DNA of 64,000 bases from Escherichia coli (GCF_024298765.1 NZ_CP101210.1), one strand, 5' to 3'; counted from the stretch's first letter, positions 16,376-64,000 are shown. Made by a program: numbers and translations. Notes: generated from the sequence alone by a model not told the origin.

Positions 16376-16468
16376 GGTGAGGTGGCCGAGAGGCTGAAGG
16401 CGCTCCCCTGCTAAGGGAGTATGCGGTCAAAAGCTGCATCCGGGGTTCGAATCCCCGCCTCACCGCCA
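16376..16468 (+). tRNA. serV: tRNA-Ser (anticodon GCU)
   Basis: 93-nt sequence GGTGAGGTGGCCGAGAGG...CCGCCTCACCGCCA with long variable arm; anticodon loop CT-GCT-AA. Confidence 0.92.
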
Positions 16469-16471
16469 TTT

Positions 16472-16548
16472 GCATCCGTAGCTCAGCTGGATAGAGTACT
16501 CGGCTACGAACCGAGCGGTCGGAGGTTCGAATCCTCCCGGATGCACCA
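16472..16548 (+). tRNA. argV: tRNA-Arg (anticodon ACG), copy 1
   Basis: 77-nt GCATCCGTAGCTCAGCTGGATAGAGTACTCGGCTACGAACCGAGCGGTCGGAGGTTCGAATCCTCCCGGATGCACCA. Confidence 0.93.
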
Positions 16549-16746
16549 TATTCTACGTACCTTCAGCGATGAAGGTATGGAAGAGGTGGCGGTAATAACC
16601 GCAGGCACCAGGGAGGATAACGTTGCTTTAGCAACGGCCCGAAGGGCGAGCCGCAAGGCGAGTAATCCTCCCGGATGCACCATCTCTTACTTGATAGGGC
16701 TTTAGTAGCGGTATCAAAAAATCTGCAGTAAAGTAAGTTTCCCGAT
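16549..16746 (+). repeat. tRNA-cluster spacer repeat ending in a duplicated tRNA-Arg 3' end
   Basis: Hairpins cttcagcgatgaag and gttgctttagcaac, then cctcccggatgcacca without a preceding tRNA body; near-identical copy at 17103-17236. Confidence 0.7.
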
Positions 16747-16823
16747 GCATCCGTAGCTCAGCTGGATAGAGTACTCGGCTACGAACCGAGCGGTCGGAGG
16801 TTCGAATCCTCCCGGATGCACCA
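16747..16823 (+). tRNA. argY: tRNA-Arg (anticodon ACG), copy 2
   Basis: Identical 77-nt tRNA-Arg sequence. Confidence 0.92.
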
Positions 16824-16885
16824 TCTCTTACTTGATATGGCTTTAGTAGCGGTATCAATATCAGCAGTAAAATAAATTTTCCGAT

Positions 16886-16962
16886 GCATCCGTAGCTCAG
16901 CTGGATAGAGTACTCGGCTACGAACCGAGCGGTCGGAGGTTCGAATCCTCCCGGATGCACCA
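16886..16962 (+). tRNA. argZ: tRNA-Arg (anticodon ACG), copy 3
   Basis: Identical 77-nt tRNA-Arg sequence. Confidence 0.92.
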
Positions 16963-17025
16963 TCTCTTACTTGATATGGCCTTAGTAGCGATATCAATAT
17001 CAGCAGTAAAATAAATTTTCCCGAT

Positions 17026-17102
17026 GCATCCGTAGCTCAGCTGGATAGAGTACTCGGCTACGAACCGAGCGGTCGGAGGTTCGAATCCTCCCGGATGCAC
17101 CA
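17026..17102 (+). tRNA. argQ: tRNA-Arg (anticodon ACG), copy 4
   Basis: Identical 77-nt tRNA-Arg sequence. Confidence 0.92.
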
Positions 17103-50524: not shown

Positions 50525-50608
50525 TTTGTAATATAACCTATATCTATATGTTAATAAATTACTTATATGTTCTTTTATGGCAGAGTTTGAATTCGTACGT
50601 GCTGATTT

Positions 50609-51145
50609 TTACGACTCAGTTAACTCTTTAAAGCGTTCCATAAACATCCCATAGGTATGGCCTGGCGACAGTGGAATAACTTTGAACATCTCTGTTGCCG
50701 GGATACCTTCCAGTACGGGCCAGAAAGAGCCATCATCAAGCCCGAGATCGCGGCGTTCGGTTGCCAGCATGATGAGATCGGCATATTTCACGGGCGTACT
50801 CATAACCGGGGGTAACCCGTATTTCTCACGGATTACGGCGTCTATTTTTTCTTCCATCCGTTTATAGTCAGGAAGAAGGCGTTTCAGTGGAGCCGGGATG
50901 TCCTGGCAATACGCTTCTGTTGCATCATGCATTAACGCTTCAAAAGCAAATTCCTGCGGTACCAGCTGGCTGCAAAGCACCGCATGTTGGGCGACGCTGT
51001 AGAAGTGTGAAAGATGGCCGGCAAAGCGACAGATATTTGAAAGGGAAACCGCGATATCGTTAATATCGATGTTGTCTTTATTTATCCTGTCATAATAAAA
51101 ATGTTTCCCGGAAAAAGTTTTAATAAATGACATTTTGTTCTCCAC
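50609..51145 (-). CDS. HD-domain phosphohydrolase (YfdR-like 5'-deoxynucleotidase family)
   Basis: 178-aa ORF with H...HD motif (AQHAVL ... LMHDATEAY); same size as CPS-53 YfdR. Confidence 0.7.
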   Translation of the reverse strand: MENKMSFIKTFSGKHFYYDRINKDNIDINDIAVSLSNICRFAGHLSHFYSVAQHAVLCSQLVPQEFAFEALMHDATEAYCQDIPAPLKRLLPDYKRMEEKIDAVIREKYGLPPVMSTPVKYADLIMLATERRDLGLDDGSFWPVLEGIPATEMFKVIPLSPGHTYGMFMERFKELTES

Positions 51146-51261
51146 GTTATATGCGCTGCACCGCGCTGAATTTTGGTTAAAGAAAACCCTCGCCTTCAGG
51201 CGATTATTGAGTCAATTACGTTTCCATAAATGCCCCCGCAGGGGCATTTGCAGTAATGAAA

Positions 51262-52086
51262 TCAGGCGGTGAAAGTCCCAATAAAGGTTTCTACTTTGCT
51301 GTCCTTGAATTTCTCAACAAGCAGATCACGAAATTCGTTAGCCATATCTTCCTGCACCGCTTCCAGCTGAATAATGCGCAGAACCAGTACAGGACGATCG
51401 CCAGTGATAATGCTGAGGCGTAATTTAAACGGACGTTCTTTCAGACCTTCAAACGGAACGCATTTAAACTCAAATGCCACTGGCATAATGTCTTTGGTCT
51501 TCGCTTCGACAGACTCCATCAGGGAGCGTTTGCCGCTGAAGTCATTATCTTCAAAATCAGCAGTCTGGTTTGCTTCAATCGTGATTTTACGGACCGCCGC
51601 AGCCGCTTTTGTTGCCTGAATGGTGTCACCATTAGCATCAAAGCCCACAAGATAGTCGGCCCAGTCTTCGATCCATTCTGCCAGTGATTTCTGGGAGTTA
51701 CGCTCTCCATTAACAGACAACAGAGCAGAGAACGGTGCTGTCTTTTTCAGTTTGAGAGTGGCGGTGTTATCTGCGTGACCTGGTTCATCAATAGTACCCA
51801 GGTTAAGCACACTGACGGCACGCATATTATCAGCATCGATAAAGCAGCGGGTGCCTTCATCTGCAAGATCTTTAGAATAACGGGTAAAGTCATCAATGCT
51901 GGCAGTGGAAAGCGCACCACGGAAACGGAAGCGATTTAAATTAAATTTTTCCAGATCATGAATGCGGAAATTCTCAGGCAATGCCACAGCATCGGCACCA
52001 ATCTTACTGATAATTTCATTAACACCCTGAGCAGAAATAAGAGCATGGATTTGATTAATTGCGGTTGCGTCTAAGTTCTGAGACAT
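51262..52086 (-). CDS. Phage protein, YfdQ-like (DUF2303 family)
   Basis: 274-aa ORF adjacent to the YfdR-like gene; size and neighbourhood match CPS-53 YfdQ (from memory). Confidence 0.6.
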
Positions 52087-52151
52087 AATAAGTCCTCACT
52101 ATATAAAGATATTCAGTGATGAGATAAATAATCAGTTAATTAAGAACGATA

Positions 52152-52514
52152 TTAATGACCTGCTGCGCGGAGTTTTCCGTCAGGCTCACCGGCAAGAGTC
52201 AGTAATTGTCCCTGGTCTTCCTGCAGAATAGTCAGGCGACCACCGCGATTGACATACATCGGCGTTTCGGTGGTGTCTTCTTCGGAAATTTTCCCACGGT
52301 TAGTCGGGCGAACATATGAGAGTTTGTGTTTGATTTTCACACGGTTCTCATCAAATGGTTCGATTTCCAGGTTGAGTGAGACCTTACCTTTGGTTTTCGT
52401 GTTCATCACACCGGAAGCGACTTCACTGAGAACTGCGCCGATTTTGGTTTCAAATACGCCGCCGTCCAGCTCCCCGATAAATGCCTGCACATCAGTACTG
52501 CGTTCGCTAGCCAT
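52152..52514 (-). CDS. Phage hypothetical protein, possibly YfdP-like
   Basis: Start placed at MASERSTDVQ (ATG ~52514) with SD AGGAG; about 120 aa; the longer ORF-track extension runs through an 18-bp inverted repeat. Confidence 0.55.
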   Translation of the reverse strand: MASERSTDVQAFIGELDGGVFETKIGAVLSEVASGVMNTKTKGKVSLNLEIEPFDENRVKIKHKLSYVRPTNRGKISEEDTTETPMYVNRGGRLTILQEDQGQLLTLAGEPDGKLRAAGH

Positions 52515-52857
52515 TTTGCTGCTCCTCATCATATCGACCCTGCAAGGCCGATTAGTTTCTCCACAAAACAGAGAAGAACACCTGCGGTGGCAGCCGCCCG
52601 GATGGATTGGGTTATGAGCCCGTCGTCCGATGATGTTCTTCTCTGTTTTGTAAAAAGAGCGGTACCAGCCGGAAGCAAGTGTACAAACTGGTACCGCCAA
52701 AGCAGTGGCTGTTGTGGTGACCGGTGCTGATCTCCGGCTTGCGGTTATTTCAGACTCTCACGGGCGTTTAATTGCCCCGCCGAACAGCTCTTTTCCGCAA
52801 TAGCTGCAATGTCTTTCGCGCATCAGCCTGCGCATTCACCACAACTCTAAAAACAAA

Positions 52858-52908
52858 TGTAGGATATCCAACGTGTGGGTGTCAAGAGTTTATGTTGGTT
52901 ATCCTACA
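52858..52908. promoter_or_regulatory. OL-like operator pair (repressor binding palindromes)
   Basis: tgtaggatatccaac (52858-52872) and tgttggttatcctaca (52893-52908); same half-site family as the OR sites. Confidence 0.6.
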
Positions 52909-52925
52909 TAAAAAGATAGGCTCAT

Positions 52926-52951
52926 AAAAAAACCGGGGATACCCCGGTTTT
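52926..52951 (-). terminator. Rho-independent terminator downstream of the cI-like gene (bidirectional-capable)
   Basis: ccgggg-ata-ccccgg hairpin flanked by A7 and T4. Confidence 0.65.
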
Positions 52952-52971
52952 GCGATAGTGAGGAAGATGTG

Positions 52972-53625
52972 TCAAAAATCCATTATTACTTGTTTGACAA
53001 GACCAACTATTCTGCAGTTCTCACCGCATTCAATAGTTTTATAGTTAGGATTTAGTGGGACGAGATACCTGTTCGGCCAGTCCTCAACAAATTTTTTGAG
53101 TGTCGCTTCTTGCCCACCATTGATATGGGCAACAACGATTTTTCCGTTAATACACTCTGTATCAATAATATCTGGCTCTACGATAACGATAGAACCTTCT
53201 GGTATCGATGGTGAGCCGAGGGGATTGGTCATTGAATCACCACGGACCCGTAGTGCAAATGCCATTTCTGATACAAGGGCGGTAGTATAAACCCACTCTT
53301 CAGCATCTTCTTTCCTGACACCAGGCTCCGTCATTGTCCATGAACCCGCCTGAACCCACGAGATGAGGGGGACTTTTTTAACTGCGAATATTTCAGGTTT
53401 TAGATTTATCTTTGGTTCAGGCGAGCCTTTTCCGCTAACAAGCCACAGAGGATCGCATTTAAGTGCGTTGGCTAGGGCTTGAAGGTTGGCTCCATTTGGT
53501 TGGTAGTCGTCCTTTTCCCATCCAGTAACCGTGACACGGTTCACACCAGTCAAATCAGCCAGTGCTTGTTGTGTCAGGTTCAGTTCTTTTCGCCTTTGGC
53601 GAATACGATCACTCATGTTCATCAT
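52972..53625 (-). CDS. CI-like prophage repressor (HTH + S24 LexA-type peptidase domain)
   Basis: 217-aa ORF; N-terminal HTH (LNLTQQALADLTGVNRVTVTGWE), C-terminal GDSM serine motif; divergent from the cro-like gene. Confidence 0.88.
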   Translation of the reverse strand: MMNMSDRIRQRRKELNLTQQALADLTGVNRVTVTGWEKDDYQPNGANLQALANALKCDPLWLVSGKGSPEPKINLKPEIFAVKKVPLISWVQAGSWTMTEPGVRKEDAEEWVYTTALVSEMAFALRVRGDSMTNPLGSPSIPEGSIVIVEPDIIDTECINGKIVVAHINGGQEATLKKFVEDWPNRYLVPLNPNYKTIECGENCRIVGLVKQVIMDF

Positions 53626-53689
53626 GTAGGCAATCCTACCACATGCTCATGTAGGATTCTTGACATTGATATGTTGGATATCCTACATT
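53625..53689. promoter_or_regulatory. OR-like operators and PR/PRM region
   Basis: Palindromes tgtaggcaatcctacc (53625-53640), tgtaggattcttgaca (53650-53665), tgttggatatcctaca (53672-53687); TTGACA -35 at 53660-53665; first operator abuts the cI start codon. Confidence 0.6.
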
Positions 53690-53720
53690 TCTGCTTAACG
53701 TAATTTAACGGGAGACAGAA

Positions 53721-53918
53721 ATGCGGAAATCCGACGTGATTAATTATTTCGGCGGAGTTTGTAAAACCGCCGAAGCCCTAGGTATTAAGCATCCGTCTGT
53801 TTCAGAGTGGCCTGAGATTATTCCTGAAGGCCGAGCGTACCAGTTAGAAAAAATTACTAACGGGAAACTGAAAGTTGACGTGTCTTTATATCAAAAGACT
53901 AACAGTGCTGCGGCATAA
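53721..53918 (+). CDS. Cro-like small DNA-binding protein
   Basis: 65-aa ORF divergent from the repressor with operators between them. Confidence 0.7.
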   Translation: MRKSDVINYFGGVCKTAEALGIKHPSVSEWPEIIPEGRAYQLEKITNGKLKVDVSLYQKTNSAAA

Positions 53919-53945
53919 AAACACCACAGAAATGAGGAATTAACC

Positions 53946-54530
53946 GTGGGTAAAGAACCTGAATGGAAAGTTGATAAACAACCAGCATGGCTGGTGGCAG
54001 CAATACGAAGAACGATTGCTGATTTACCTCATGGCTATGAGGAAGCAGCAGAAATTCTTGGTTTGTATAAATCTGATGATATCACCCCAGCAAAAGATCA
54101 ATTGCATAACAGACTGCGTAGCGGTGGGGATCAAATTTTTCCACTTGAGTGGGCCATGGTTTTACAGGATGCCAGTGGTACCAGGCATGTAACAGATGCA
54201 ATAGCCCGTCGTAGTAATGGGGTGTTTGTGCCGCTGGTGGTCATTGATGACATTGACAATGGTGACATTAATCAGCGGCTGATGGAGTCAATAGAATGGA
54301 TTGGCAAGCATTCCCAGTACTTACGCAAGGCAACTGCTGATGGAGTTATTGACCAAGCTGAGCGTGAGCAAATCGAAGAGAACAGCTACCAAGTAATGGC
54401 GAAGTGGCAGGAGCATTTAACACTGTTATTTCGTGTTTTTTGTGCGCCGGAAAAGAGTAACGCCCGCGAGTGTGCAGCTCCGGGCGTCGTGGCGTCGATT
54501 GCTTCTGGTTGTGGAGAAACTAACGCATGA
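53946..54530 (+). CDS. Phage regulatory protein, CII-like (tentative)
   Basis: 194-aa ORF directly after cro in the cII position; family assignment from position and vague similarity only. Confidence 0.45.
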
Positions 54531-54865
54531 ACAGTTTAACAACACACTACCGTCGTTCGCAACTGATTGCGCTTCCTGTACCGGGTGGAAAAGCGAAGGT
54601 GGAGTATTGCTATGCAGTGAATGTACCAGGTGATAGGGAAATTGTAACCCACAGCTTTGCAGAGTGGGCTGTGGGTGATTTCAACCGGCAGAAGGAGACA
54701 GTCCTTTGCGACAAGTTAACCGCTGGTTCAAAGATCACTACGGAGTGCCCGTCAGAGTCATTCGTTGGGAGCCGGAAACACAACGGGTTATCTACCTCCG
54801 TGAAGGCTATGAACATGAATGCTTCAGTCCGCTCGAACAGTTTCGTCGTAAATTCAGGGAAATAG
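54527..54865 (+). CDS. Hypothetical phage protein (C-terminal part doubtful)
   Basis: 112-aa ORF starting at the ATGA overlap with the upstream stop; the last ~50 aa are low-complexity and overlap ORF 54706-54918 out of frame. Confidence 0.35.
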
Positions 54866-54918
54866 AGGTCGGTCATGAGCCTGTTAATGACATCCCAGCC
54901 CATTGTGATAAATCGTGA
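54706..54918 (+). CDS. Hypothetical phage protein (TTG start)
   Basis: 70-aa ORF with strong SD gaaggaga about 7 nt upstream of TTG; protein-like composition; overlaps the O-like gene start. Confidence 0.45.
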
Positions 54919-55867
54919 TCTTGCATGCCGTATTGGTCTGAATGAGGCAATTGTGTTGCAGCAGCTTCATTACTGGCTGAATGAAACGAATTCAGGCACT
55001 GAGCATGGCGGAATTCGCTGGGTTTATAACACGACAGAACAGTGGCTGGAGCAGTTTCCGTTCTGGTCAGAGTCCACTCTGAAACGCACATTTGCAAGCC
55101 TGAAATCACTTGGGGTTTTGCGTCGCGAGCAACTCAATAAATCGAAGCGTGACATGACCAACTTCTACACGATCAACTATGAAAGTGAGCTTTTAGAAGA
55201 GGTCAAAGTGAACGAATCCATCAGGTCAAAATGCACTTCTCCATCGGGTCAAAGTGACCTGATGGATGAGCGCAAAATGACACGATCCATTGGTTCAAAA
55301 CGACACGCTGTCATCGGGTCAAAATGGCCCAATGATCTTACAGAGAATACAACAGAGATTACTACAGAGAATAAAACCTCTTCTCGTCCGGACGCTTCGC
55401 AACCGGACACGCAGATGGCTGAACAGGATTTTTTAACTCGCCATCCTGATGCGGTTGTATTCAGCCCTAAAAAGCGCCAGTGGGGAACGCAGGATGATTT
55501 GACCTGCGCACAGTGGCTCTGGAAAAAAATCATCGCTCTGTACGAGCAGGCCGCCGAATGTGACGGCGAAGTGGTACGTCCTAAAGAACCGAACTGGACA
55601 GCCTGGGCAAACGAAATTCGCCTGATGTGTGTACAGGATGGGCGTACTCACAAACAAATCTGCGAGATGTACAGCCGCGTCAGCCGCGATCCGTTCTGGT
55701 GCCGTAACGTGCTCAGCCCGTCGAAGCTGCGGGAAAAATGGGATGAGCTTTCCCTGCGCTTATCGCCGTCCGTCAGCACGTACACAGAAAAACGCGAAGA
55801 TCCGTACTTCAAAGCCAGTTACGACAACGTGGACTACAGCCAGATCCCGGCAGGATTCAGGGGGTGA
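54875..55867 (+). CDS. Replication initiation protein, lambda O-like, with internal iterons
   Basis: 330-aa ORF; N-terminal O-like domain; four to five direct DNA repeats of the ggtcaaaatg type at ~55196-55330. Confidence 0.8.
   Translation: MSLLMTSQPIVINRDLACRIGLNEAIVLQQLHYWLNETNSGTEHGGIRWVYNTTEQWLEQFPFWSESTLKRTFASLKSLGVLRREQLNKSKRDMTNFYTINYESELLEEVKVNESIRSKCTSPSGQSDLMDERKMTRSIGSKRHAVIGSKWPNDLTENTTEITTENKTSSRPDASQPDTQMAEQDFLTRHPDAVVFSPKKRQWGTQDDLTCAQWLWKKIIALYEQAAECDGEVVRPKEPNWTAWANEIRLMCVQDGRTHKQICEMYSRVSRDPFWCRNVLSPSKLREKWDELSLRLSPSVSTYTEKREDPYFKASYDNVDYSQIPAGFRG
55196..55330. repeat. Origin iterons inside the O-like gene
   Basis: Direct repeats gaggtcaaagtg, caggtcaaaatg, cgggtcaaagtg, tggttcaaaacg, cgggtcaaaatg spaced ~20-25 bp. 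Confidence 0.7.
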
Positions 55868-55869
55868 TC

Positions 55870-55962
55870 ATGAGTCTTTTGAATGAAGTTCAGAAATTCA
55901 TTGAAGCCCATCCGGGGTGTACTTCCGGAGACATTGCGGATGCTTTTTACGTGGGGGCTTAA
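55870..55962 (+). CDS. Small ORF (30 aa) translationally coupled between the O-like gene and the methyltransferase
   Basis: ATG at 55870 preceded by SD aggggg; stop overlaps the methyltransferase ATG (TAATG). Confidence 0.3.
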   Translation: MSLLNEVQKFIEAHPGCTSGDIADAFYVGA

Positions 55963-56615
55963 TGAGTAATAAATATTGTCAGGCGCTGGTGGAGCTGCGG
56001 AACAAACCATCCCATGAACTGAAGGAGGTGGGCGATCAGTGGCGCACGCCGGACAGCATTTTCTGGGGAATTAACACCTTGTTTGGCCCGTTTGTTCTGG
56101 ATCTGTTCACTGACGGTGATAACGCCAAATGTGCCGCGTATTACACGGCGGAAGACAACGCGCTGGCGCATGACTGGTCAGAACGCCTTGCGGAGCTTAA
56201 AGGTGCTGCCTTTGGCAATCCCCCATACAGTCGCGCCAGTCAGCATGAGGGGCAATACATCACCGGCATGCGTTACATCATGAAACATGCCAGTGCCATG
56301 CGTGATAAGGGCGGGCGCTATGTTTTCCTGATCAAAGCTGCCACCAGCGAAGTGTGGTGGCCGGAAGATGCGGACCATATTGCTTTTATTCGCGGGCGTA
56401 TTGGTTTTGAACTGCCTGCCTGGTTTATCCCGAAAGATGAGAAGCAGGTGCCGATAGGCGCTTTCTTCGCTGGTGCTATTGCTGTTTTTGACAAGACCTG
56501 GAAGGGACCGGCAATCAGCTACATCGGGCGCGATGAACTTGAGGCATGTGGTGAGGCCTTTCTGGCGCAGGTTCGCCAGCAGGCAGAAAAACTGGTCAGG
56601 GAGATGGTGGCATGA
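55962..56615 (+). CDS. Phage DNA N6-adenine methyltransferase (Dam-like)
   Basis: About 218 aa from MSNKYCQALVEL; motif IV FGNPPYS. Confidence 0.85.
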   Translation: MSNKYCQALVELRNKPSHELKEVGDQWRTPDSIFWGINTLFGPFVLDLFTDGDNAKCAAYYTAEDNALAHDWSERLAELKGAAFGNPPYSRASQHEGQYITGMRYIMKHASAMRDKGGRYVFLIKAATSEVWWPEDADHIAFIRGRIGFELPAWFIPKDEKQVPIGAFFAGAIAVFDKTWKGPAISYIGRDELEACGEAFLAQVRQQAEKLVREMVA

Positions 56616-57001
56616 AGCTGATCCTGCCTTTTCCGCCCAGCGTGAACACGTACTGGCGACACCCCAACAAAGGGGCGTTTGCTGGTAAGAGCCTGATAAG
56701 CGCGGCGGGGCGAAAATTCCAGAGCGCGGCGTGCGCAGCAATAGTTGAGCAGTTACGTCGTCTGCCGAAACCAACGTCGGCACCTGCTTCAGTGGAGATC
56801 GTGTTGTTTCCTCCGGATAACCGGATCCGCGATCTGGACAACTATAACAAGGCGCTGTTTGACGCCCTGACCCACGCGGGTGTGTGGGAAGACGACAGTC
56901 AGGTGAAAAGAATGCTGGTGGAGTGGGGACCGGTTATCCCGGGAGGGAAGGTCGAGATCACTATCAGTAAGTACGAGAAAACGGCGGGTGCAGCCGCCTG
57001 A
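56612..57001 (+). CDS. rusA: Holliday junction resolvase RusA-like
   Basis: 129-aa ORF; RusA-like pattern (PPSVNTYWRH ... DLDNYNKALFDALTHAGVWEDDSQV). Confidence 0.85.
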   Translation: MKLILPFPPSVNTYWRHPNKGAFAGKSLISAAGRKFQSAACAAIVEQLRRLPKPTSAPASVEIVLFPPDNRIRDLDNYNKALFDALTHAGVWEDDSQVKRMLVEWGPVIPGGKVEITISKYEKTAGAAA

Positions 57002-57020
57002 TTAAGAGGAGAAACGAAGT

Positions 57021-57818
57021 ATGAATAATCTGATGGTCATTGATGGTATTGAAGTTCGTCGTGATGCTTATGGTCGTTACAGCCTGAACGATCTGCACAG
57101 GTCTGCCGGTTCTCTGGATAAGCATAAGCCTGCATTCTGGCTCCGCAATGAGCAAACTGAACGTTTAATAAGCGAGTTGCAGATTTGCAACTCGGTCAAT
57201 ATAGAGCCAGTTAACGTTATTCGTGGCGGAAATAACCAGGGGACGTATGTCTGCAAAGAACTGGTGTATGCCTATGCAATGTGGATCAGCCCGTCATTCC
57301 ATCTGAAGGTGATCCGTACTTTCGACATGGTAACCAGCGCACCGGAAAAATTATCCGGACAGGCTGCTGACAAGATGCAGGCTGGTGTGATCCTGCTGGA
57401 CTTTATGCGCCGGGAATTAAACCTGTCTAACTCATCAGTGCTTGGAGCCTGTCAGAAGCTTCAGGAGGCTGTTGGCTTACCGAATCTGGCACCGCGCTAT
57501 GCCATTGATGCTCCTGCTGATGCACTCGATGGCTCAAGCCGCCCGACACTGTCACTGAGTGCACTGCTGAAGCAGTATGGTATCCGCCTGACAGCTAATC
57601 AGGCATATCACCAGATGGCGAAGCTGGGGATCGTTGAACAACGTGAACGATACAGCCGCACTGCGATTAACAACATCAAAAAATTCTGGTCGCTGACGGC
57701 GAAAGGCTGCATGTTCGGCAAGAACATCACCAGTCCCGCAAATCCGCGCGAGACGCAGCCGCATTTCTTCGAATCCCGATTCCCTGAGCTGTTAAAGCTG
57801 CTCGATACCGTTCATTGA
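57021..57818 (+). CDS. KilA-N domain protein (antirepressor-like)
   Basis: 265-aa ORF; N-terminal KilA-N-like region (VRRDAYGRYSLNDLHRSAG ... KPAFWLRNEQTERLI). Confidence 0.7.
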   Translation: MNNLMVIDGIEVRRDAYGRYSLNDLHRSAGSLDKHKPAFWLRNEQTERLISELQICNSVNIEPVNVIRGGNNQGTYVCKELVYAYAMWISPSFHLKVIRTFDMVTSAPEKLSGQAADKMQAGVILLDFMRRELNLSNSSVLGACQKLQEAVGLPNLAPRYAIDAPADALDGSSRPTLSLSALLKQYGIRLTANQAYHQMAKLGIVEQRERYSRTAINNIKKFWSLTAKGCMFGKNITSPANPRETQPHFFESRFPELLKLLDTVH

Positions 57819-57819
57819 G

Positions 57820-58815
57820 GTGACCGTGAGAGCACTACTGACCCCTGAAATTGCCCCGCGTATGGGGATCGTATTGTTCAGACCAGGTTCAGAGCTGATG
57901 CCCTTGTTTATGCAGGGGCGTGTCCTGCTGGAGCCTGAGCCGGAACGTTATTCATCTTTCGCCAGTGGTGCCGTTCCGGCGGCATCACAACCGCTGGCGG
58001 ATGATCCTGCCGTTCGGGCCGTGTTCCGCAATGAGGCAGTGATCCGTCGTGCTGGTGGCGTGGAATGTCTTGAAAGCTGGTTACTTCGTGAAAAAGGCTG
58101 CCAGTGGCCTCATTCCGGCTGGCACAGCGAGAACATGACAACAATGCGACACGCTCCGGGCGCAATCCGTCTGTGCTGGCACTGCGATAACCAGCTGCGC
58201 GATCAGTTCACGGAACGGCTGGAATCAATGGCAACGGATAACTGTGCCCGCTGGGTGTTGTCTGTTGTGCGTCGGGATCTCGGTTTTGATGACAGTCATG
58301 TTGTGACAATGCCGGAACTGTGCTGGTGGCTGATTCGTAATGATCTGGCGGATGCCTTACCGGAAAGTGCAGCCCGTAAGGCACTGAGATTACCGAAGCC
58401 TGTTGTGCCGTCTGTTACCCGGGAAAGTGACCTTGTGCCTTCGGTTCCTGCCACCAGCATCATCCAGGATAAGGCGAAAAAGGTGCTGGCGCTGAAAGTG
58501 GATCCGGAGTCGCCGGAGTCTTTTATGTTACGCCCAAAACGTCGCCGCTGGGTTAATGAAAAGTACACGCGCTGGGTTAAGACACAGCCGTGTGCATGTT
58601 GTGGAAAGCCCGCTGATGATCCCCACCACCTGATAGGTCACGGTCAGGGTGGAATGGGAACAAAAGCGCATGACCTCTTTGTGTTGCCTTTGTGCAGAAA
58701 GCATCACGACGAGCTGCATGCGGATACCGTGGCATTTGAAGAGAAGTATGGCTCTCAGCTGGAGCTGATATTTCGTTTTATCGATCGTGCGCTGGCAATT
58801 GGCGTATTGGCGTAA
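57820..58815 (+). CDS. DUF968-family phage protein (YdfU-like)
   Basis: 331-aa ORF with GTG start; C-terminal Cys/His-rich region (QPCACCGKPADDPHHLIGHG ... CRKHHDELH); usual position between rusA and Q. Confidence 0.65.
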   Translation: MTVRALLTPEIAPRMGIVLFRPGSELMPLFMQGRVLLEPEPERYSSFASGAVPAASQPLADDPAVRAVFRNEAVIRRAGGVECLESWLLREKGCQWPHSGWHSENMTTMRHAPGAIRLCWHCDNQLRDQFTERLESMATDNCARWVLSVVRRDLGFDDSHVVTMPELCWWLIRNDLADALPESAARKALRLPKPVVPSVTRESDLVPSVPATSIIQDKAKKVLALKVDPESPESFMLRPKRRRWVNEKYTRWVKTQPCACCGKPADDPHHLIGHGQGGMGTKAHDLFVLPLCRKHHDELHADTVAFEEKYGSQLELIFRFIDRALAIGVLA

Positions 58816-58828
58816 GTGGAGAACGAGC

Positions 58829-59581
58829 ATGAACCTTGAAGCCTTACCAAAATATTACTCCCCAAAATCTCCAAAATTGAGCGATGACGCACCGGCGACA
58901 GGCTCTGGTGGTTTAACAATTACGGATGTAATGGCTGCGCAGGGGATGGTGCAGTCGAAAGCACCGCTTGGGTTTGCCTTATTCCTGGCAAAAGTTGGTG
59001 TTCAGGATCCTCAGTTTGCGATTGAAGGTCTGCTCAATTACGCGATGGCACTGGATAACCCGACATTGAATAAATTGAGTGAAGAAACCCGGCTACAGAT
59101 CATTCCTTACCTTGTGAATTTTGCCTTTGCTGATTATTCCAGGTCTGCGGCAAGTAAGGCTCGCTGTGAGCATTGTGCTGGTACTGGATTTCATAATGTA
59201 TTGCGCGAGGTGGTGAAACACTCCAGAAGCGGGGAATCTGTTATCAAGGAAGAGTGGGTGAAGGAACTATGTCAGCATTGTCATGGTAAGGGAGAAGTCA
59301 GCACAGCGTGCAGAGGGTGTAAGGGTAAAGGTATTGTCCTGGATGAAAAAAGAACCCGGCTTCATGGTACGCCTGTTTATAAGATTTGTGGGCGTTGCAA
59401 TGGTAACCGTTTTAGCCGTTTACCAACCACACTGGCGCGGCATCATGTCCAGAAGCTGGTACCAGACCTGACGGATTATCAGTGGTACAAAGGATATGCA
59501 GATGTCATTGATAAACTGGTTACAAAGTGCTGGCAGGAAGAAGCATATGCAGAGACACAATTGAGAAAAGTGACAAGATAA
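58829..59581 (+). CDS. Late gene antiterminator Q
   Basis: Start at MNLEALPKYY with SD ggaga; zinc-finger-like CEHCAGTG ... CQHCHGKG ... CRGCKGKG ... CGRCNG; followed by late promoter/terminator region. Confidence 0.8.
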   Translation: MNLEALPKYYSPKSPKLSDDAPATGSGGLTITDVMAAQGMVQSKAPLGFALFLAKVGVQDPQFAIEGLLNYAMALDNPTLNKLSEETRLQIIPYLVNFAFADYSRSAASKARCEHCAGTGFHNVLREVVKHSRSGESVIKEEWVKELCQHCHGKGEVSTACRGCKGKGIVLDEKRTRLHGTPVYKICGRCNGNRFSRLPTTLARHHVQKLVPDLTDYQWYKGYADVIDKLVTKCWQEEAYAETQLRKVTR

Positions 59582-59691
59582 ATGATTTTCGCCGAAGATG
59601 GCGACATGATGCTTGCATTTTTCAAAAAATCTGGTTAGGATTCTCCTAACGATGGGCTTTGTATGTCTGCCGTTAACGAAATCATAACAAA

Positions 59692-59713
59692 CCTCGCTTC
59701 GGCGGGGTTTTTG
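59692..59713 (+). terminator. tR'-like rho-independent terminator after the late promoter
   Basis: Hairpin cctcgc-ttcg-gcgggg followed by tttttgctttt. Confidence 0.7.
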
Positions 59714-59731
59714 CTTTTCTGGAGGTCAATA

Positions 59732-59989
59732 ATGCAGGGCGAAAAGCAGCAGCCATATTTTTTTAACCCTGGTATGACTGTTGAACAGCTTGAAGACTGG
59801 CTGGAGCAGCAAAAGCTTCATCTAAGCCGCTATAACCGTCTGGTAAAAGAAAAAGCAGAGCTTGAAGAACGGCTCAGTGATATTTCTGTGGAAATTGAAC
59901 GAATGTCTGCTGGTGGTTTTAACGGAAAGTTGAGTTTCCCCTGGGAGTCAAGTTCGCTTCTGAGAAATCATCAACAGGGTAGTGTTTGA
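59732..59989 (+). CDS. Hypothetical small protein (85 aa) immediately downstream of tR'
   Basis: ATG at 59732 with SD ggagg; coiled-coil-like (LEQQKLHLSRYNRLVKEKAELEERLSDISVEIERM). Confidence 0.5.
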   Translation: MQGEKQQPYFFNPGMTVEQLEDWLEQQKLHLSRYNRLVKEKAELEERLSDISVEIERMSAGGFNGKLSFPWESSSLLRNHQQGSV

Positions 59990-60068
59990 CTGAAATAATA
60001 AACAGACTGTCATTAAGATCCCTTCCCCTCATATCTGAGAGGACCAACAGCAATTAAGAGGGGGCTAA

Positions 60069-60455
60069 ATGTCCGATCCGATTTCCGGTACTGGGCTGGC
60101 TGGTGGTGCCCTGACGGGTGCCAGTGTTTATGGACTGCTGACCGGAACTGATTACGGCGTTGTATTTGGCGCATTTGCAGGGGCTGTATTCTACATAGCA
60201 ACAGCAGCAGATCTGAGTGCATCGCGTCGACTGGCATATTTTATCGTGTCATATATTGCCGGGATTCTTTGCTCTGGGTTGGTTGGCTCCAAGCTGGCGA
60301 ACTTGACCGGATACAGTGATAAACCTCTGGATGCTATTGGTGCCGTAATCGTCTCTGCTTTAGCCGTTAAAATCCTGACGTTCCTGAATAATCAGGATAT
60401 CGGCTCGCTGGTGGCGCTCATAACGCGCCGGGGAGGTTCAGGTGGAGCTAAATGA
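60069..60455 (+). CDS. Putative holin (multi-TM small membrane protein)
   Basis: 128-aa ORF with about three hydrophobic helices; first gene of the lysis cassette; SD agaggggg. Confidence 0.6.
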   Translation: MSDPISGTGLAGGALTGASVYGLLTGTDYGVVFGAFAGAVFYIATAADLSASRRLAYFIVSYIAGILCSGLVGSKLANLTGYSDKPLDAIGAVIVSALAVKILTFLNNQDIGSLVALITRRGGSGGAK

Positions 60456-60723
60456 CCCGACAGCAACTATAAATGCGCTGTTATGTGCTTGTGTTGTTAT
60501 TACTCTGATGTTTTATCGTCGTGGTGATTCGCGGCATCGTCCTTGGGTTTCACGTTTAGCCTGGCTGATTACTGTTACATACAGTGCTGTTCCGTTGGCC
60601 TATCTCTGTGGGATTTATCCTCATTCCTCATGGCCCATTATCGTGGCGAACACTATTTTTCTTTCCGTGCTGGTGGCCGTCAGAGGCAACGTTGCACGTC
60701 TGGTTGATCATCTGAGGCACTAA
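60442..60723 (+). CDS. Putative second holin/antiholin-like membrane protein
   Basis: 93-aa ORF with three hydrophobic segments; overlaps neighbours at both ends. Confidence 0.55.
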   Translation: MELNDPTATINALLCACVVITLMFYRRGDSRHRPWVSRLAWLITVTYSAVPLAYLCGIYPHSSWPIIVANTIFLSVLVAVRGNVARLVDHLRH

Positions 60724-61337
60724 TGAACCAACAATTATTTCAAAAGGCGGCTGGTATTAGCGCCGGGCTGGCTGCGCGCTGGTTTCCGCACATTGATGCG
60801 GCGATGAAGGAATTCGGCATTACAGCACCAGCGGATCAGGCAATGTTTATCGCTCAGGTAGGCCATGAGTCGATGGGGTTTAGCGCCGTAGTTGAAAATT
60901 TTAACTACACACCATCTGCGCTGGTGGCGACGTTCGGAAAGAGGATCACACAGCAGCAGGCTGATGCCCTTGGCAGAACATCCGGACATGCAGCTCGTCA
61001 GGATGCTATTGCCAATCTGGTGTATAGCAACCGACTGGGTAACAAAGCACCAGGTGATGGCTGGAAATATCGTGGTAGAGGATTAATTCAAATCACTGGC
61101 CTCCATAATTATCGCATCTGTGGCGCGGCGCTGAAGTTAGATCTGGTGACTTCACCTGAACAACTGGAACAGGAACTACAGGCTGCGCGCTCAGCTGCAT
61201 GGTTCTACACCTCTAAAGGTTGCATGATCTACGGTGCCGATATTAACCGTGTTACGCGCATCATTAACGGCGGTCTGAACGGTATTGAGGATCGTAAGGT
61301 CCGATACAACAAGGCGCGGGCGGCGCTGCTGGTATGA
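60723..61337 (+). CDS. Endolysin, glycoside hydrolase family 19 (chitinase-like)
   Basis: 204-aa ORF; GH19-like catalytic region (FIAQVGHESMGF ... YRGRGLIQITG); ATGA overlap with upstream gene. Confidence 0.8.
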   Translation: MNQQLFQKAAGISAGLAARWFPHIDAAMKEFGITAPADQAMFIAQVGHESMGFSAVVENFNYTPSALVATFGKRITQQQADALGRTSGHAARQDAIANLVYSNRLGNKAPGDGWKYRGRGLIQITGLHNYRICGAALKLDLVTSPEQLEQELQAARSAAWFYTSKGCMIYGADINRVTRIINGGLNGIEDRKVRYNKARAALLV

Positions 61338-61726
61338 AGATGAGTTATTGGGCGCTCATTTTAACGTTTATTGCTTGTGTCGCTGGTGGTCTTGTCTGGT
61401 CAGCGAATCACTATCATGGAAAGTTTCTGGAGGAGCAGAAGCGTGCTGATGCTGCGGAACAGCGAGCTGATTCTACTGAGGCTATCACCGCGAATGTTCT
61501 GCGTACTATGGCAATAACGAACATCATTCAGGAGGCGAATCAACATGCAAAACAGCAGATCGCACTGGAGTCACAGAGAACCCAGGAAGATATCAAAGTG
61601 GCTGTTGCGGATGATGATTGTGCTTCACGTCCTGTGCCTGCTGCCGCTGCTGACCGGTTGCGGAAGTACGCGAACAGTTTACGTCCAGGTTCCGGTAGTT
61701 CCGTTACCAGCCAGCCTGACGGCTGA
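61334..61726 (+). CDS. Rz-like inner-membrane spanin (i-spanin)
   Basis: 130-aa ORF; N-terminal TM then coiled-coil periplasmic domain; follows the endolysin. Confidence 0.75.
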   Translation: MKMSYWALILTFIACVAGGLVWSANHYHGKFLEEQKRADAAEQRADSTEAITANVLRTMAITNIIQEANQHAKQQIALESQRTQEDIKVAVADDDCASRPVPAAAADRLRKYANSLRPGSGSSVTSQPDG

Positions 61727-61880
61727 AACCCCTCAGCCTGATTTACCTGATCATTTTACGTGGGGCTCGAGCTTAGATCTGAATGTCGCCTTGTTGTCTG
61801 CATTGGCGCAGTGTAATACCGATAAAGCTGACATCAGAAGGATTGAAGTTGAGCGTGGTCACATCATGCAAAAAAAATGA
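61611..61880 (+). CDS. Rz1-like outer-membrane lipoprotein spanin (o-spanin), overlapping Rz in another frame
   Basis: Start at MMIVLHVLCLLPLLTGCGS (lipobox LTGC); proline-rich; overlaps the Rz 3' end. Confidence 0.7.
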   Translation: MMIVLHVLCLLPLLTGCGSTRTVYVQVPVVPLPASLTAETPQPDLPDHFTWGSSLDLNVALLSALAQCNTDKADIRRIEVERGHIMQKK

Positions 61881-61972
61881 TGTTAACTTTGTTTTGTTCC
61901 TTGATTTGATATGTGATGGCCCAATAGATACAAAGCACCTGATTTTGGTGACTCTTTTAAAGGGCTTTACAC

Positions 61973-62293
61973 ATGAAAGATGGTATCTATTTTGTTGTTT
62001 TCAGAAGCAATCAACGTGATTTTGGTAATGGTACCGTAGTTGTCAAAAACAATGCAGTAAATGGCGGAGATTTTGGTTTTACGTATCAGGGAAAAATTGA
62101 CGGTAGCCAACTTATTCTGCGCGTATCGCAGCATGATTTAAATGTCACCTCGGTTTTCCCTGGGGTAAAGAACTTTGAATTGAGTCTTTCTTTGCAGGAA
62201 CGAGGACGTGATTACCTGTTAAATGGATCTGTGGTCGGAATGCCTCAGATGCAAATTTCAATTAGTGCAAAATACATTGGTGATCTGATTTAG
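61973..62293 (+). CDS. GrlR-like (lipocalin-fold) family protein, tentative
   Basis: 106-aa ORF starting MKDGIYFVVFRSN, reminiscent of GrlR-family proteins from memory; followed by terminator aaccgcctccgggcggtttttta. Confidence 0.45.
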   Translation: MKDGIYFVVFRSNQRDFGNGTVVVKNNAVNGGDFGFTYQGKIDGSQLILRVSQHDLNVTSVFPGVKNFELSLSLQERGRDYLLNGSVVGMPQMQISISAKYIGDLI

Positions 62294-62385
62294 TTTATCG
62301 AGATGATAATTGAACCGCCTCCGGGCGGTTTTTTATTGCCATTTCTATGGTCTGTTCCATCGTAATAACTTAAAGGGAAGCATTA

Positions 62386-62736
62386 ATGCCGCCACGAACC
62401 CCGAAAGCCTGCCGTGTTCGCGGCTGCCGCCATACCACTACTGACCCTTCAGGCTACTGCGAAAGCCACAAAAGCGAAGGCTGGAAGCAATACAAACCTG
62501 GACAATCCCGTCATCAGCGCGGCTACGGTTCGAAGTGGGACAGTATCCGCGCTCGTGTTCTGAAGCGTGACAAAGGCCTGTGTCAGTTATGTCTGCGTGC
62601 TGGTGTGGTGCGTGAGGCGAAAACTGTTGACCACATCATCCCTAAAGCGCATGGCGGCACTGATGCCGACTGTAATCTGCAGAGTCTGTGCTGGCCGTGT
62701 CATAAGGCGAAGACGGCCCGTGAACGGTTGAAGTGA
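62386..62736 (+). CDS. HNH endonuclease (terminase-associated)
   Basis: 116-aa ORF; zinc/HNH motifs CRVRGCRH ... CQLCLRAG ... VDHIIPKAHGGTD ... NLQSLCWPCH; directly upstream of terminase. Confidence 0.85.
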   Translation: MPPRTPKACRVRGCRHTTTDPSGYCESHKSEGWKQYKPGQSRHQRGYGSKWDSIRARVLKRDKGLCQLCLRAGVVREAKTVDHIIPKAHGGTDADCNLQSLCWPCHKAKTARERLK

Positions 62737-62861
62737 TAATGATTCTCAACTGCCTGAGGGGAGGGGCGGGTCAAATCCCTGCGGCCTGACGTCTTCCGGA
62801 CTGCCCGCCCCATCGTTTTTTTATACCCGCGAAAAATGAAATTTAACCAGGAGTGCCGCAT

Positions 62862-63356
62862 ATGGCTGGAACGGCGGGGCGTTCCGGGCGTCGCCCCAAG
62901 CCAACGGCGCGCAAGGCGCTGGCCGGAAACCCCGGCAAGCGAGCCCTGAATAAAGATGAACCTGTTTTTACGCCCATCAAAGGTGTTGAGCCACCGGAGT
63001 GGTTCGCTGAAGAAGATCTCCCTCTCGCCACGATCATGTGGCAACTGACAACCAAAGAACTCTGCGGTCAGGGCCTGCTGTGCGTGACTGACCTCGCGGT
63101 GCTTGAGCGGTGGTGCGTGGCCTATGAGTTCTGGCGACGTGCCGTGAAAAATATTGCCAGCCAGGGCAACACCATTACCGGTGCAATGGGCGGTATGGTC
63201 AAAAACCCGGAGCTGACCGCCAAGAAAGAACAGGAGTCCGAGATGAGCAGCACGGGGGCAATGCTCGGACTCGACCCCAGCAGCCGCCAGCGTCTGATTG
63301 GCCTGGCGGGGAAGAAGAAAGCCACTAACCCGTTTCTGAAAATCATCGAGTCATGA
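62862..63356 (+). CDS. Terminase small subunit (P27-like family)
   Basis: Start at [14 protein letters not shown]; typical N-terminal basic region; stop overlaps the large-subunit ATG. Confidence 0.8.
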
Positions 63357-64000
63357 GCCGGAAATCTTACCCCAACGTAAATGCTGCCAATCAGTATGCC
63401 CGGGATGTCGTGCGCGGAAAGATTGTTGCCTGCCAGTTTGTGATTCAGGCCTGCCAGCGCCATCTTGATGACCTGATGGCGGAAAAAAGTAAGTCGTTTC
63501 GTTACCGCTTCGACAAGGACCTGGCTGAACGGGCCGCGAAATTTATTCAGCTGTTGCCGCACACCAAGGGTGAGTGGGCATTCAAACGGATGCCCATCAC
63601 GCTGGAGCCGTGGCAGCTATTTGTGATCTGCTGTGCGTTTGGCTGGGTCAATAAAGGCACCCGGTTGCGCCGCTTCCGGGAGGTGTATACCGAAATCCCC
63701 CGTAAGAACGGCAAATCAGCAATCTCTGCCGGTGTTGCCCTGTATTGTTTTGCCTGTGATAACGAGTTTGGCGCGGAAGTGTATTCCGGTGCCACGACAG
63801 AGAAACAGGCGTGGGAAGTCTTTCGCCCGGCGCGACTGATGTGTAAACGCACACCCATGCTGACGGAAGCGTTCGGGATTGAGGTTAACGCCTCAAACAT
63901 GAACCGTCCGGAGGATGGCGCGCGGTTTGAACCGCTGATCGGCAACCCCGGTGATGGTTCATCACCCCACTGTGCCGTGGTTGATGAATATCACGAGCAT
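63353..64000 (+). CDS. Terminase large subunit, 5' part (truncated by window end)
   Basis: Hand-translated [29 protein letters not shown]... with Walker A-like [11 protein letters not shown]; open to the window end. Confidence 0.8.

Follow-up and report, generated by a model that had tools for sequence, protein, structure and literature searches.

A translationally coupled pair of putative holin genes in the lysis cassette of an Escherichia coli prophage

Two small membrane proteins are encoded one after the other, ahead of the endolysin gene, in the lysis cassette of an Escherichia coli prophage. The question is which of them makes the hole in the inner membrane and what the other one contributes. 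A first-pass annotation of the window, i.e., the whole stretch of 64,000 nucleotides analyzed here, had described them as overlapping multi-pass proteins of 128 and 93 residues and had suggested a holin-antiholin or a pinholin arrangement. We analyzed the two genes (called ORF1 and ORF2 below), their relatives in other phages and the endolysins that accompany them, and we weighed several possible divisions of labor between the two proteins.

The lysis cassette and its genomic setting

The left half of the prophage occupies the window, with the integrase gene at approximately 48.2 to 49.4 kb, adjoining the glaH/gab region, and with late genes reaching the window end. The locus is recognizably a canonical holin-endolysin-spanin lysis cassette, ordinary and already publicly annotated. 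It comprises five translationally coupled genes, for ORF1, ORF2, a GH19 endolysin, an i-spanin and an o-spanin, which lie 3′ of the Q gene and of a terminator-like hairpin (Table 1). PGAP labels the Q coding sequence 'antitermination protein Q' in an identical genome region, and the hairpin is a candidate tR′-type terminator, through which Q-modified polymerase would read. A second terminator-like hairpin, 3′ of a GrlR-like gene, marks the end of the lysis/moron block; HNH and terminase genes come next. The 85-residue ORF upstream of the pair and the GrlR-like gene downstream of the cassette were considered as conserved lysis components and were rejected, being present in only 12 and 9 related loci, respectively.

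Table 1 Features of the lysis region, with positions counted from the first nucleotide of the window
Feature	Position	Strand	Basis
Antiterminator Q, late-gene activator upstream of the cassette	58829..59581	+	Pfam Antiterm PF03589, E 1.3e-53
Terminator-like hairpin with T-run, just 3′ of Q	59689..59720	+	Pattern scan: 9-bp stem, 5 GC pairs, loop 4, T-rich tail
85-aa soluble hypothetical protein, between terminator and lysis genes	59732..59989	+	PHROG 3501 (unknown function), E 2.5e-54; PGAP hypothetical protein
ORF1, predicted 128-aa 4-helix inner-membrane protein	60069..60455	+	PF16931 Phage_holin_8; PHROG 198 'holin'
ORF2, predicted 93-aa 3-helix membrane protein	60442..60723	+	PF05449 Phage_holin_3_7 (formerly DUF754); PHROG 217 'holin'
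GH19 endolysin, soluble, 204 aa	60723..61337	+	PF00182, 29.8 bits vs cut-off 25.5
i-spanin (Rz-like), 130 aa, one N-terminal TMD at residues 6-24	61334..61726	+	PHROG 214 Rz-like spanin, E 3e-47
o-spanin (Rz1/LysC-like) frame	61545..61880	+	PF23793 LysC, E 1.6e-18; PHROG 456
Terminator-like hairpin 3′ of the GrlR-like gene	62312..62340	+	Pattern scan: 8-bp stem, 5 GC pairs, T-run

The 2.7-kb region was 100% identical in three complete E. coli genomes and was at least 80% covered in 51. In the identical genomes, the PGAP coding sequences of ORF1 and ORF2 have the same ends as the ORFs of the window, and the labels given to the cassette are 'phage holin family protein' twice, GH19 protein and LysC. 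The locus itself matters little, since the same sequence is found in annotated prophages of E. coli, and the value of the analysis, a modest one, lies at the family level. The cassette region was also 99.7% identical to that of Escherichia phage SKA5, the record of which is a complete phage genome deposited with an APEC host strain. To judge by SKA5 and by the UV-inducible tailocin BceTMilo, the cassette would be one that works in real lysis settings. The lysis genes of BceTMilo are very similar to those of phage KL3 (PMC5411513), and the holin of KL3 is a DUF754 protein (PMC3091744).

The endolysin is of the GH19 type and not of the lambda R type, as had been proposed. Its start codon overlaps the ORF2 stop codon (TAATG). 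Residues 4 to 202 of the protein aligned with the SPN1S endolysin (PDB 4OK7) with an E value of 6e-78, and the alignment showed that the catalytic glutamates, Glu49 and Glu58, and the sequence YRGRGLIQITG, which corresponds to the GRGxIQIT motif, are conserved. With the PF00182 catalytic domain and the conserved catalytic glutamates, the protein can be assigned to the GH19 enzymes. An N-terminal membrane or SAR segment is absent, as the maximal hydropathy over 17 residues within the first 45 residues was at most 0.89, versus more than 2.1 for the true transmembrane domains (TMDs) of these proteins.

The i-spanin start overlaps the endolysin stop (ATGA). The o-spanin ORF, in a different frame, has its start within the i-spanin gene and extends 154 nt beyond that gene, in line with the overlapping Rz/Rz1 spanins of the first-pass annotation. 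The true start of the o-spanin is likely Met23/24, at positions 61611 to 61616, and its lipobox consists of LLTG followed by Cys39 (61659 to 61661). Its gene layout places the pair in the 'overlapped' class of two-component spanins, following the definition in PMC6139136; in the same source, this is the most frequent of three architectures, with 228 of 528 cases. Neither a GH19 endolysin nor overlapped spanins are unusual; both are common.

Two predicted multi-pass membrane proteins

ORF1 starts with an ATG codon, with GAGGGGG just 5′ of it. The protein matched PF16931 along the entire profile (positions 1 to 121 of 121; E 1.2e-34; 119.4 bits against a gathering threshold of 26.4), and it matched the PHROG 198 'holin' family with an E value of 5e-43. 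AlphaFold2 predicted a confident four-helix bundle with an additional short C-terminal helix (pLDDT 83.8, pTM 0.68; helices at residues 5-25, 29-45, 51-80, 86-108 and 111-120). The positive charge on the loop between helices 2 and 3 and on the C-terminal tail implies a predicted N-in/C-in topology. Helix 1 is the least hydrophobic of the helices, with a mean hydropathy of 1.30, and consists of 60% Gly/Ala/Ser/Thr across the family, a composition similar to that of SAR helices. In the alignment of homologues, TMDs 2 to 4 contain the invariant small residues G34, G38, A39, S61, G65 and A92. Searching the PDB for folds similar to the ORF1 model gave nothing better than an E value of 1.2. The same model had weak neighbors in BFVD, with a best E value of 1.7e-3 and a TM score of ~0.5; these neighbors are annotated holins, including LydA-like ones, and thus ORF1 could itself be a hole former.

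ORF2 is in the +1 frame relative to ORF1 and shares 14 nt with it. It starts with a GTG codon, preceded by the Shine-Dalgarno sequence GGAGG at a 5-nt spacing. The protein matched PF05449 over profile positions 1 to 79 of 80 (E 7e-20; 71.2 bits against a gathering threshold of 25.4) and the PHROG 217 'holin' family with an E value of 6e-32. Both hydropathy and AlphaFold2 indicated three strongly hydrophobic helices, at approximately residues 6-23, 34-55 and 64-79, followed by a short C-terminal helix. For 38 diverse homologues, the net charge was +2.7 for the loop between helices 1 and 2 and +1.6 for the C-terminal tail. These charges point to an N-out/C-in orientation, and ORF2 is therefore predicted to have the three-TMD, N-out, C-in topology of a class I holin. 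The most conserved positions of the family are cytoplasmic, namely, RRxGxxHR after helix 1 and RGNV after helix 3.

The description of the pair as two small overlapping multi-pass proteins is borne out by the ORFs, by their Pfam and PHROG matches and by the four and three long helices predicted for ORF1 and ORF2, respectively. That description hinged on both ORFs being translated as well as being membrane proteins. The dN/dS ratios, calculated with 62 diverged homologues, were 0.057 for ORF1 and 0.065 for ORF2, and this strong purifying selection indicates that both are real, translated genes. Both products also have the general features of holins, since they are small, possess at least one TMD and a charged hydrophilic C terminus, and are encoded next to an endolysin gene.

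ORF1 and ORF2 are not homologous to each other according to BLASTP and hhalign, and no NCBIfam model matched either of them. ORF1 yielded no BLASTP alignment with LysA of phage P2, and the hhalign probability for this pair was 0.3%. The comparison of ORF2 with P2 Y and lambda S gave a BLASTP E value of 0.82 and hhalign probabilities of 0.3% and 1.3%. Alignments of ORF1, ORF2 and their homologues revealed no dual-start motif of the lambda S107/S105 type; the N termini, MSDPISG and MELNDPT, offer no second start with an added positive charge, either in the window or in the homologues. Any antiholin must therefore be a separate gene or polypeptide. A search of open-access papers and preprints found no experimental study of PF16931, of PF05449/DUF754 or of the holins of the SPN1S/epsilon15 type. 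The published holins of Ralstonia P2110, Aeromonas PZL-Ah152, E. coli UE-M6, N4 and Serratia ChiW were considered and proved to be unrelated.

The pair as one module

A tblastn search of phage genomes revealed the two genes side by side in SKA5, LMessi, mEp390 and HK639, in the Stx2e phage phiP27, and in phages of Yersinia, Klebsiella, Pectobacterium, Actinobacillus and Burkholderia. They are also found in the LT-II phages Rac-SA53 and SerU-LTIIb, the records of which name them 'holin1' and 'holin2'. The pair adjoins Shiga toxin 2e and LT-II toxin genes, and the release of these toxins is presumably lysis-dependent. BLAST matches to ORF2 alone were obtained with SPN1S, epsilon15-like phages, the P2-like phages RSA1 and KS14, the N4-like phage FSL SP-076, a Klebsiella prophage and Pseudomonas phage UF_RH7. 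In all of them, the gene upstream codes for a protein of 113 to 135 residues, which Pfam placed in PF16931. The second gene is unannotated in three records, those of 118970_sal3, ENT39118 and UF_RH7. An intact unannotated ORF was read directly in the latter two, and ORF2 was detected in the 118970_sal3 locus. More generally, genome annotations are inconsistent, in that the label 'holin' is sometimes given to only one of the two genes and the second gene is sometimes overlooked altogether.

We scored loci using hidden Markov models built from the two family alignments. The PF16931-like and PF05449-like genes were adjacent in 180 of 183 loci, and the remaining three loci are cut by contig ends. 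This total includes a first set in which both genes were adjacent and on the same strand at every locus (95/95), a set of further viral contigs seeded on single distant ORF2 homologues (80/83, the three exceptions ending at a contig edge), and the loci that encode four divergent 50%-cluster representatives (5/5). Loci with both genes span lambdoid, P2-like, epsilon15-like, N4-like and Pseudomonas phages, with identities down to ~20-30%. The two genes were likewise neighbors in each of the phage genomes inspected. Ralstonia phage records numbered 52 for each of the two families.

The overlap between the two genes was 1 to 17 nt in 150 of the 153 distinct loci, most commonly 14 or 4 nt. The Shine-Dalgarno sequence of ORF2 sits inside the conserved C-terminal Gly codons of ORF1, and the invariance of Gly123 in ORF1 may therefore partly reflect a constraint at the RNA level. 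Pairwise identities between ORF1 proteins were correlated with those between ORF2 proteins (r = 0.98). The two families, both 'putative holin' families in Pfam, formed a single module with coupled translation and proved inseparable at every locus that could be checked.

A profile of the concatenated pair, run against 1.84 billion cluster representatives, retrieved no genuine full-length ORF1-ORF2 fusion; two candidates, P0121 and P0258, were frameshift read-throughs. [quoted passage not shown] An artificial fusion, ORF1-(GGGGS)6-ORF2, was modeled with AlphaFold2 using a paired alignment of 25 rows, and this prediction, made without inter-chain error estimates, had a pTM of 0.43 and a pLDDT of 64.9.

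The genes that follow the pair were of several kinds. In 158 related loci, the next gene coded for a GH19 enzyme in 78 cases, for a protein combining PG_binding_1 and a muramidase domain in 61, for a GH108-like enzyme in 7, for a GH24 lysozyme in 3 and for an M15/L-Ala-D-Glu peptidase in 2, with one more of the last type among the divergent representatives. Even among locus pairs with ORF1 proteins at least 85% identical, the endolysin type differed in 15%. The module is portable between endolysin types and between phage lineages. No N-terminal TMD or membrane anchor was found in any of the five unrelated endolysin types that follow the pair, and such soluble endolysins imply that a large-hole holin is required.

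The arrangement of two membrane genes is already known, and for homologues it has been interpreted in the same manner since 2010. In the Burkholderia P2-like phages KS5, KS14, KL3 and AP3 and in tailocin BceTMilo, a 'putative antiholin' gene comes with genes for a DUF754 holin, an endolysin and LysB/LysC. KS14 gp29 and gp28 belong to the same two families as ORF1 and ORF2, and tblastn identified KS5 gp35 as a homologue of ORF1. Gene order, the overlapped LysC-type o-spanin and the published interpretation are the same as for the window (PMC3091744, PMC5247547, PMC5411513). However, the proteins are 30 to 40% identical to those of the window, and the endolysin is of the PG_binding_1 plus muramidase type rather than GH19. 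The Burkholderia cassettes also sit in a P2-type late operon after gene X, whereas that of the window follows a lambdoid Q gene.

Phage SPN1S is similar in another way. A Pfam scan placed its membrane protein SPN1S_0026 and its holin SPN1S_0027 in the same two families, and these genes are accompanied, in the same order, by those for the closely related GH19 endolysin and for spanins. Epsilon15 and phiV10 also carry homologues of the ORF2 family. In these three epsilon15-like phages, however, the proteins of the holin pair are ~20-26% identical to those of the window, and the SPN1S spanins are listed as embedded (PMC6139136) and not as overlapped. What is added here is that the two families, at all loci that could be checked, form an inseparable, coupled module that works with many types of soluble endolysins, which argues against the pinholin idea.

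Possible roles of the two proteins

The reading that we prefer, and to which we give about an even chance, is drawn by analogy: ORF2 would be the hole-forming holin, of class I type, and ORF1 a co-translated, antiholin-like timing partner. ORF2, with three TMDs and the N-out/C-in orientation, would build up in the inner membrane while the late genes are transcribed and, at a defined moment, would open large, nonspecific holes, through which the GH19 endolysin, fully folded in the cytoplasm, would gain access to the cell wall. ORF1, with four TMDs and the N-in/C-in orientation, would be translated from the same mRNA immediately before ORF2, would associate with it in the membrane and would set the time of triggering, in an antiholin-like manner comparable to that of LysA for the holin Y in phage P2. 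The Rz/Rz1 spanin complex would then disrupt the outer membrane. In this scheme, we infer the identity of the hole former, the physical interaction between ORF1 and ORF2, and the direction of the effect on timing.

The size, the predicted topology, the cationic tail and the position of ORF2 are those of a class I holin. Downstream of gene X, where P2 carries Y, K and lysA, the P2-like phages RSA1 and KS14 have the pair; Y is a three-TMD holin, and the product of lysA, with four TMDs, is annotated 'affects timing of lysis'. On the basis of synteny with P2, Lynch et al. designated the upstream gene a 'putative antiholin' (PMC3091744), and the holin/antiholin prediction was repeated for AP3 and for tailocin BceTMilo (PMC5247547, PMC5411513). 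The holin-antiholin half of the first-pass suggestion, which amounts to the published Burkholderia prediction and has topology and synteny as its basis, is thus a reasonable one.

The likeness to P2 extends to the length of Y, which has 93 residues like ORF2, to LysA being a separate protein, and to overlapped spanins of the LysB/LysC type. In contrast, no homology to the P2 proteins was detected at the sequence or profile level, and K lies between Y and lysA in P2, whereas the two genes of the window are adjacent, overlapping and upstream of the endolysin gene. With lambda S105/S107, the common points are the predicted class I topology and the cationic C-terminal tail of ORF2, expression after Q and a soluble endolysin. 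Lambda differs in that S is not homologous to ORF2 and has the dual-start motif, that the putative regulator of the window is a separate four-TMD protein, and that the endolysin is a GH19 enzyme instead of the R transglycosylase.

Several observations sit less well with a holin and its antiholin. The roles are assigned by analogy, topology and synteny, with no detectable homology of either protein to P2 LysA, P2 Y or lambda S, and the AlphaFold2 model of the fused pair is not that of a confident complex. The weak fold neighbors of ORF1 are annotated holins. Both genes were kept at every testable locus, which is more than expected of a dispensable regulator, and ORF1 has the better initiation signals (ATG versus GTG), which is unusual for a pure inhibitor.

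It may be instead that ORF1 and ORF2 are both subunits of one heteromeric hole, neither of them being lethal alone. An obligate two-component holin of this kind is roughly as compatible with the data as the holin/antiholin reading is; we regard it as the main rival, a possibility to be entertained tentatively. Two-component precedents exist in Gram-positive hosts, with XhlA/XhlB of PBSX and gp24.1/gp26 of SPP1. The co-occurrence of the two genes in all 180 testable loci, in very different lineages and down to ~20-30% identity, is consistent with this model, as are the similar divergence rates of the two proteins. The fixed gene order and the translational coupling suggest a set stoichiometry. 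The invariant small residues in TMDs 2 to 4 of ORF1 fit tight helix packing, the predicted fold of ORF1 weakly resembles annotated holins, and the cytoplasmic RRxGxxHR and RGNV motifs of ORF2 are as expected of a partner-binding surface. However, the linker-fused pair gave no confident co-fold, and an antiholin may also be strictly conserved. The lack of a genuine fusion protein among the 1.84 billion representatives also counts against the model, although the predicted junction forbids a simple fusion anyway. If the two-component reading is true, phages of Gram-negative bacteria would have in this pair their first defined two-component holin, none having been found in the literature searched, and the module would be common to lambdoid, P2-like, epsilon15-like, N4-like and Pseudomonas phages and to tailocins, with at least five unrelated endolysin types.

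A more specific version of the heteromeric model, in which the weakly hydrophobic Gly/Ala/Ser/Thr-rich helix 1 of ORF1 would serve as a releasable, SAR-like timing element, seems to us rather doubtful. The line between an antiholin and a co-holin may be to some extent one of terminology. Lambda S107, an antiholin, may itself become part of the hole after depolarization of the membrane. According to the N4 study, S107 is toxic when expressed alone or after energy poisons (PMC12642591).

The roles could also be reversed, with ORF1 (Phage_holin_8) as the true holin and ORF2 (DUF754) as its antiholin or regulator. Some records, such as those of phages 118970_sal3 and ENT39118, call only the ORF1-type gene a holin, and ORF1 has both the strongest initiation signals and annotated holins as its fold neighbors. 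Nevertheless, it is ORF2 that has the classic class I size and topology and that immediately adjoins the endolysin gene; the ORF2 type is called the holin in other records and in the literature, and synteny with P2 favors the three-TMD protein for this role. We consider this reversal improbable.

Two independent, partly redundant holins, each supporting lysis under different host conditions, appear quite improbable as well. Pfam, PHROGs and PGAP all label both proteins as holins, and precedents have been put forward, namely, the multiple holin-like proteins of phage P1, for which redundancy is proposed (PMC9025707), and gp62/gp63 of N4 (PMC12642591). Sporadic loss of one gene would be expected if they were redundant, yet none of the 180 testable loci was without either gene, and joint action is favored by the fixed gene order and the tight coupling.

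The pinholin half of the first-pass suggestion, in which one of the proteins would make small depolarizing pinholes that activate a membrane-tethered SAR endolysin, does not hold up and is most improbable: helix 1 of ORF1 is weakly hydrophobic, with a composition resembling that of a SAR helix, but the endolysin, a full-length homologue of a crystallized soluble enzyme, has no N-terminal hydrophobic segment, the other endolysin types of the pair likewise have none, neither protein has the two-TMD architecture of class II, and since a soluble endolysin needs a canonical large-hole holin, the reading is excluded for practical purposes.

Phage N4 provides a comparison for such a system. Its pinholin gp63 and regulator gp62 resemble ORF1 and ORF2 in being adjacent, co-occurring small membrane proteins encoded beside the endolysin gene, one protein acting as the trigger and the other as a regulator with mixed holin and antiholin phenotypes (PMC12642591). 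In contrast, the N4 proteins are unrelated to those of the window and have one or two TMDs, and N4 combines pinholes with a SAR endolysin, whereas the endolysin of the window is soluble. The N4-like phage FSL SP-076 carries the PF16931 and PF05449 pair instead.

Start signals of the second holin gene

In the window, the Shine-Dalgarno sequence and GTG start codon of ORF2, the downstream gene of the holin pair, fall at positions 60432-60444, at residues 121-126 of ORF1, the upstream gene. It is the codons of the conserved C-terminal Arg-Gly-Gly tail of ORF1 that supply these signals (cGG GGA GGt ... GTG). Therefore, the Gly123 residue, which is invariant in the ORF1 family, may be constrained by the RNA signal in addition to its function in the protein.

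Coordinates of the features in the window and in the comparison loci, the latter in the numbering of each locus
Feature	Location	Strand	Remarks
tRNA-Ser(gct), then 4 tRNA-Arg(acg)	window 16376-17102		tRNA cluster
85-aa soluble protein gene	window 59732-59989	+	PHROG 3501
Promoter-like site, GrlR-like gene	window 61966-61993
GrlR-like protein gene, 106 aa	window 61973-62293	+	Pfam GrlR, PGAP name
Terminator-like hairpin, GrlR-like gene	window 62312-62340
HNH endonuclease gene	window 62386-62736	+
P27-family small terminase subunit gene	window 62853-63356	+
i-spanin annotation problem	L001 10735-11007		PGAP record
Unannotated ORF2-type ORF	L003 3922-4190		phage 118970_sal3
Unannotated ORF2-type ORF	L005 2868-3152		phage ENT39118
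Unannotated ORF2-type ORF	L016 1944-2279		Pseudomonas phage UF_RH7
Holin pair adjoining Shiga toxin 2e	L008 847-2082		phiP27
Holin pair adjoining toxin genes	L009 776-2007 and 3798-4938		Rac-SA53
ORF2-type frame read past usual stop	L153 2501-3364		IMG/VR contig, RSA1-like
ORF2-type frame read past usual stop	L142 2501-3115		IMG/VR contig, RSA1-like

Annotation of the lysis genes and extended ORF2 frames

The holin-pair products appear in public records under names as varied as 'holin', 'membrane protein', 'hypothetical protein', 'antiholin' and 'LysA', and the ORF2-type gene is unannotated in three phage genomes despite the presence of an ORF of that family. The i-spanin gene is intact, but PGAP either calls it a truncated 'DUF2570' pseudogene or leaves it out, apparently as a result of its overlap with lysC.

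Two RSA1-like contigs carry ORF2-type frames that continue past the usual stop, and in L153 the extended frame enters the PG_binding_1 endolysin sequence in frame. The garbled translation downstream suggests frameshift errors in the assemblies, although the long frames could also represent genuine holin-endolysin fusions.

Genes flanking the lysis module

The 85-aa ORF is located after the terminator-like hairpin that follows Q and before the holin pair. Judging from its sequence, its product is apparently a coiled-coil protein, and the DNA at approximately 59689-59992 is 80% identical to a region of Salmonella phage ST64B annotated sb50. We place this ORF outside the conserved lysis module because it was found in only 12 related loci.

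On the other side, the GrlR-like gene lies in a moron position between the spanin genes and the HNH/terminase genes, and it was found in only nine of the related loci examined. PGAP labels it 'GrlR family regulatory protein', and its product scores 26.7 bits against the Pfam GrlR profile, marginally below the cut-off of 26.8. Because GrlR regulates the LEE type III secretion island, a copy carried by a prophage might influence virulence regulation in the host.

The HNH endonuclease gene directly precedes that of the P27-family small terminase subunit, a pairing usual in cos-packaging, HK97-like phages. phiP27 has the same arrangement, and its copy adjoins an annotated cos site.

In phiP27, Shiga toxin 2e is encoded immediately upstream of the holin pair, and Rac-SA53 has a pertussis-like toxin upstream of the pair and heat-labile enterotoxin IIa immediately 3' of the endolysin gene. 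Toxin release from these two prophages would presumably depend on lysis by the holin-pair module.

Chromosomal setting

With positions 1-50600 of the window set against 50600-64000, relatives of the late region of this prophage are located at chromosomal sites that vary between strains. The prophage of the window adjoins glaH and the gab operon, and in strain EC-07 the neighbours are a truncated tRNA-dihydrouridine synthase gene and zur. Mosaicism marks the early regions, where the matches are only patchy (87-98%).

The tRNA-Ser/tRNA-Arg cluster at 16376-17102 probably matches the E. coli serV-argVYZQ cluster. ARAGORN also reported an antisense tRNA-Arg(tcg) at 16492-16563, overlapping the cluster, which is probably a false call.
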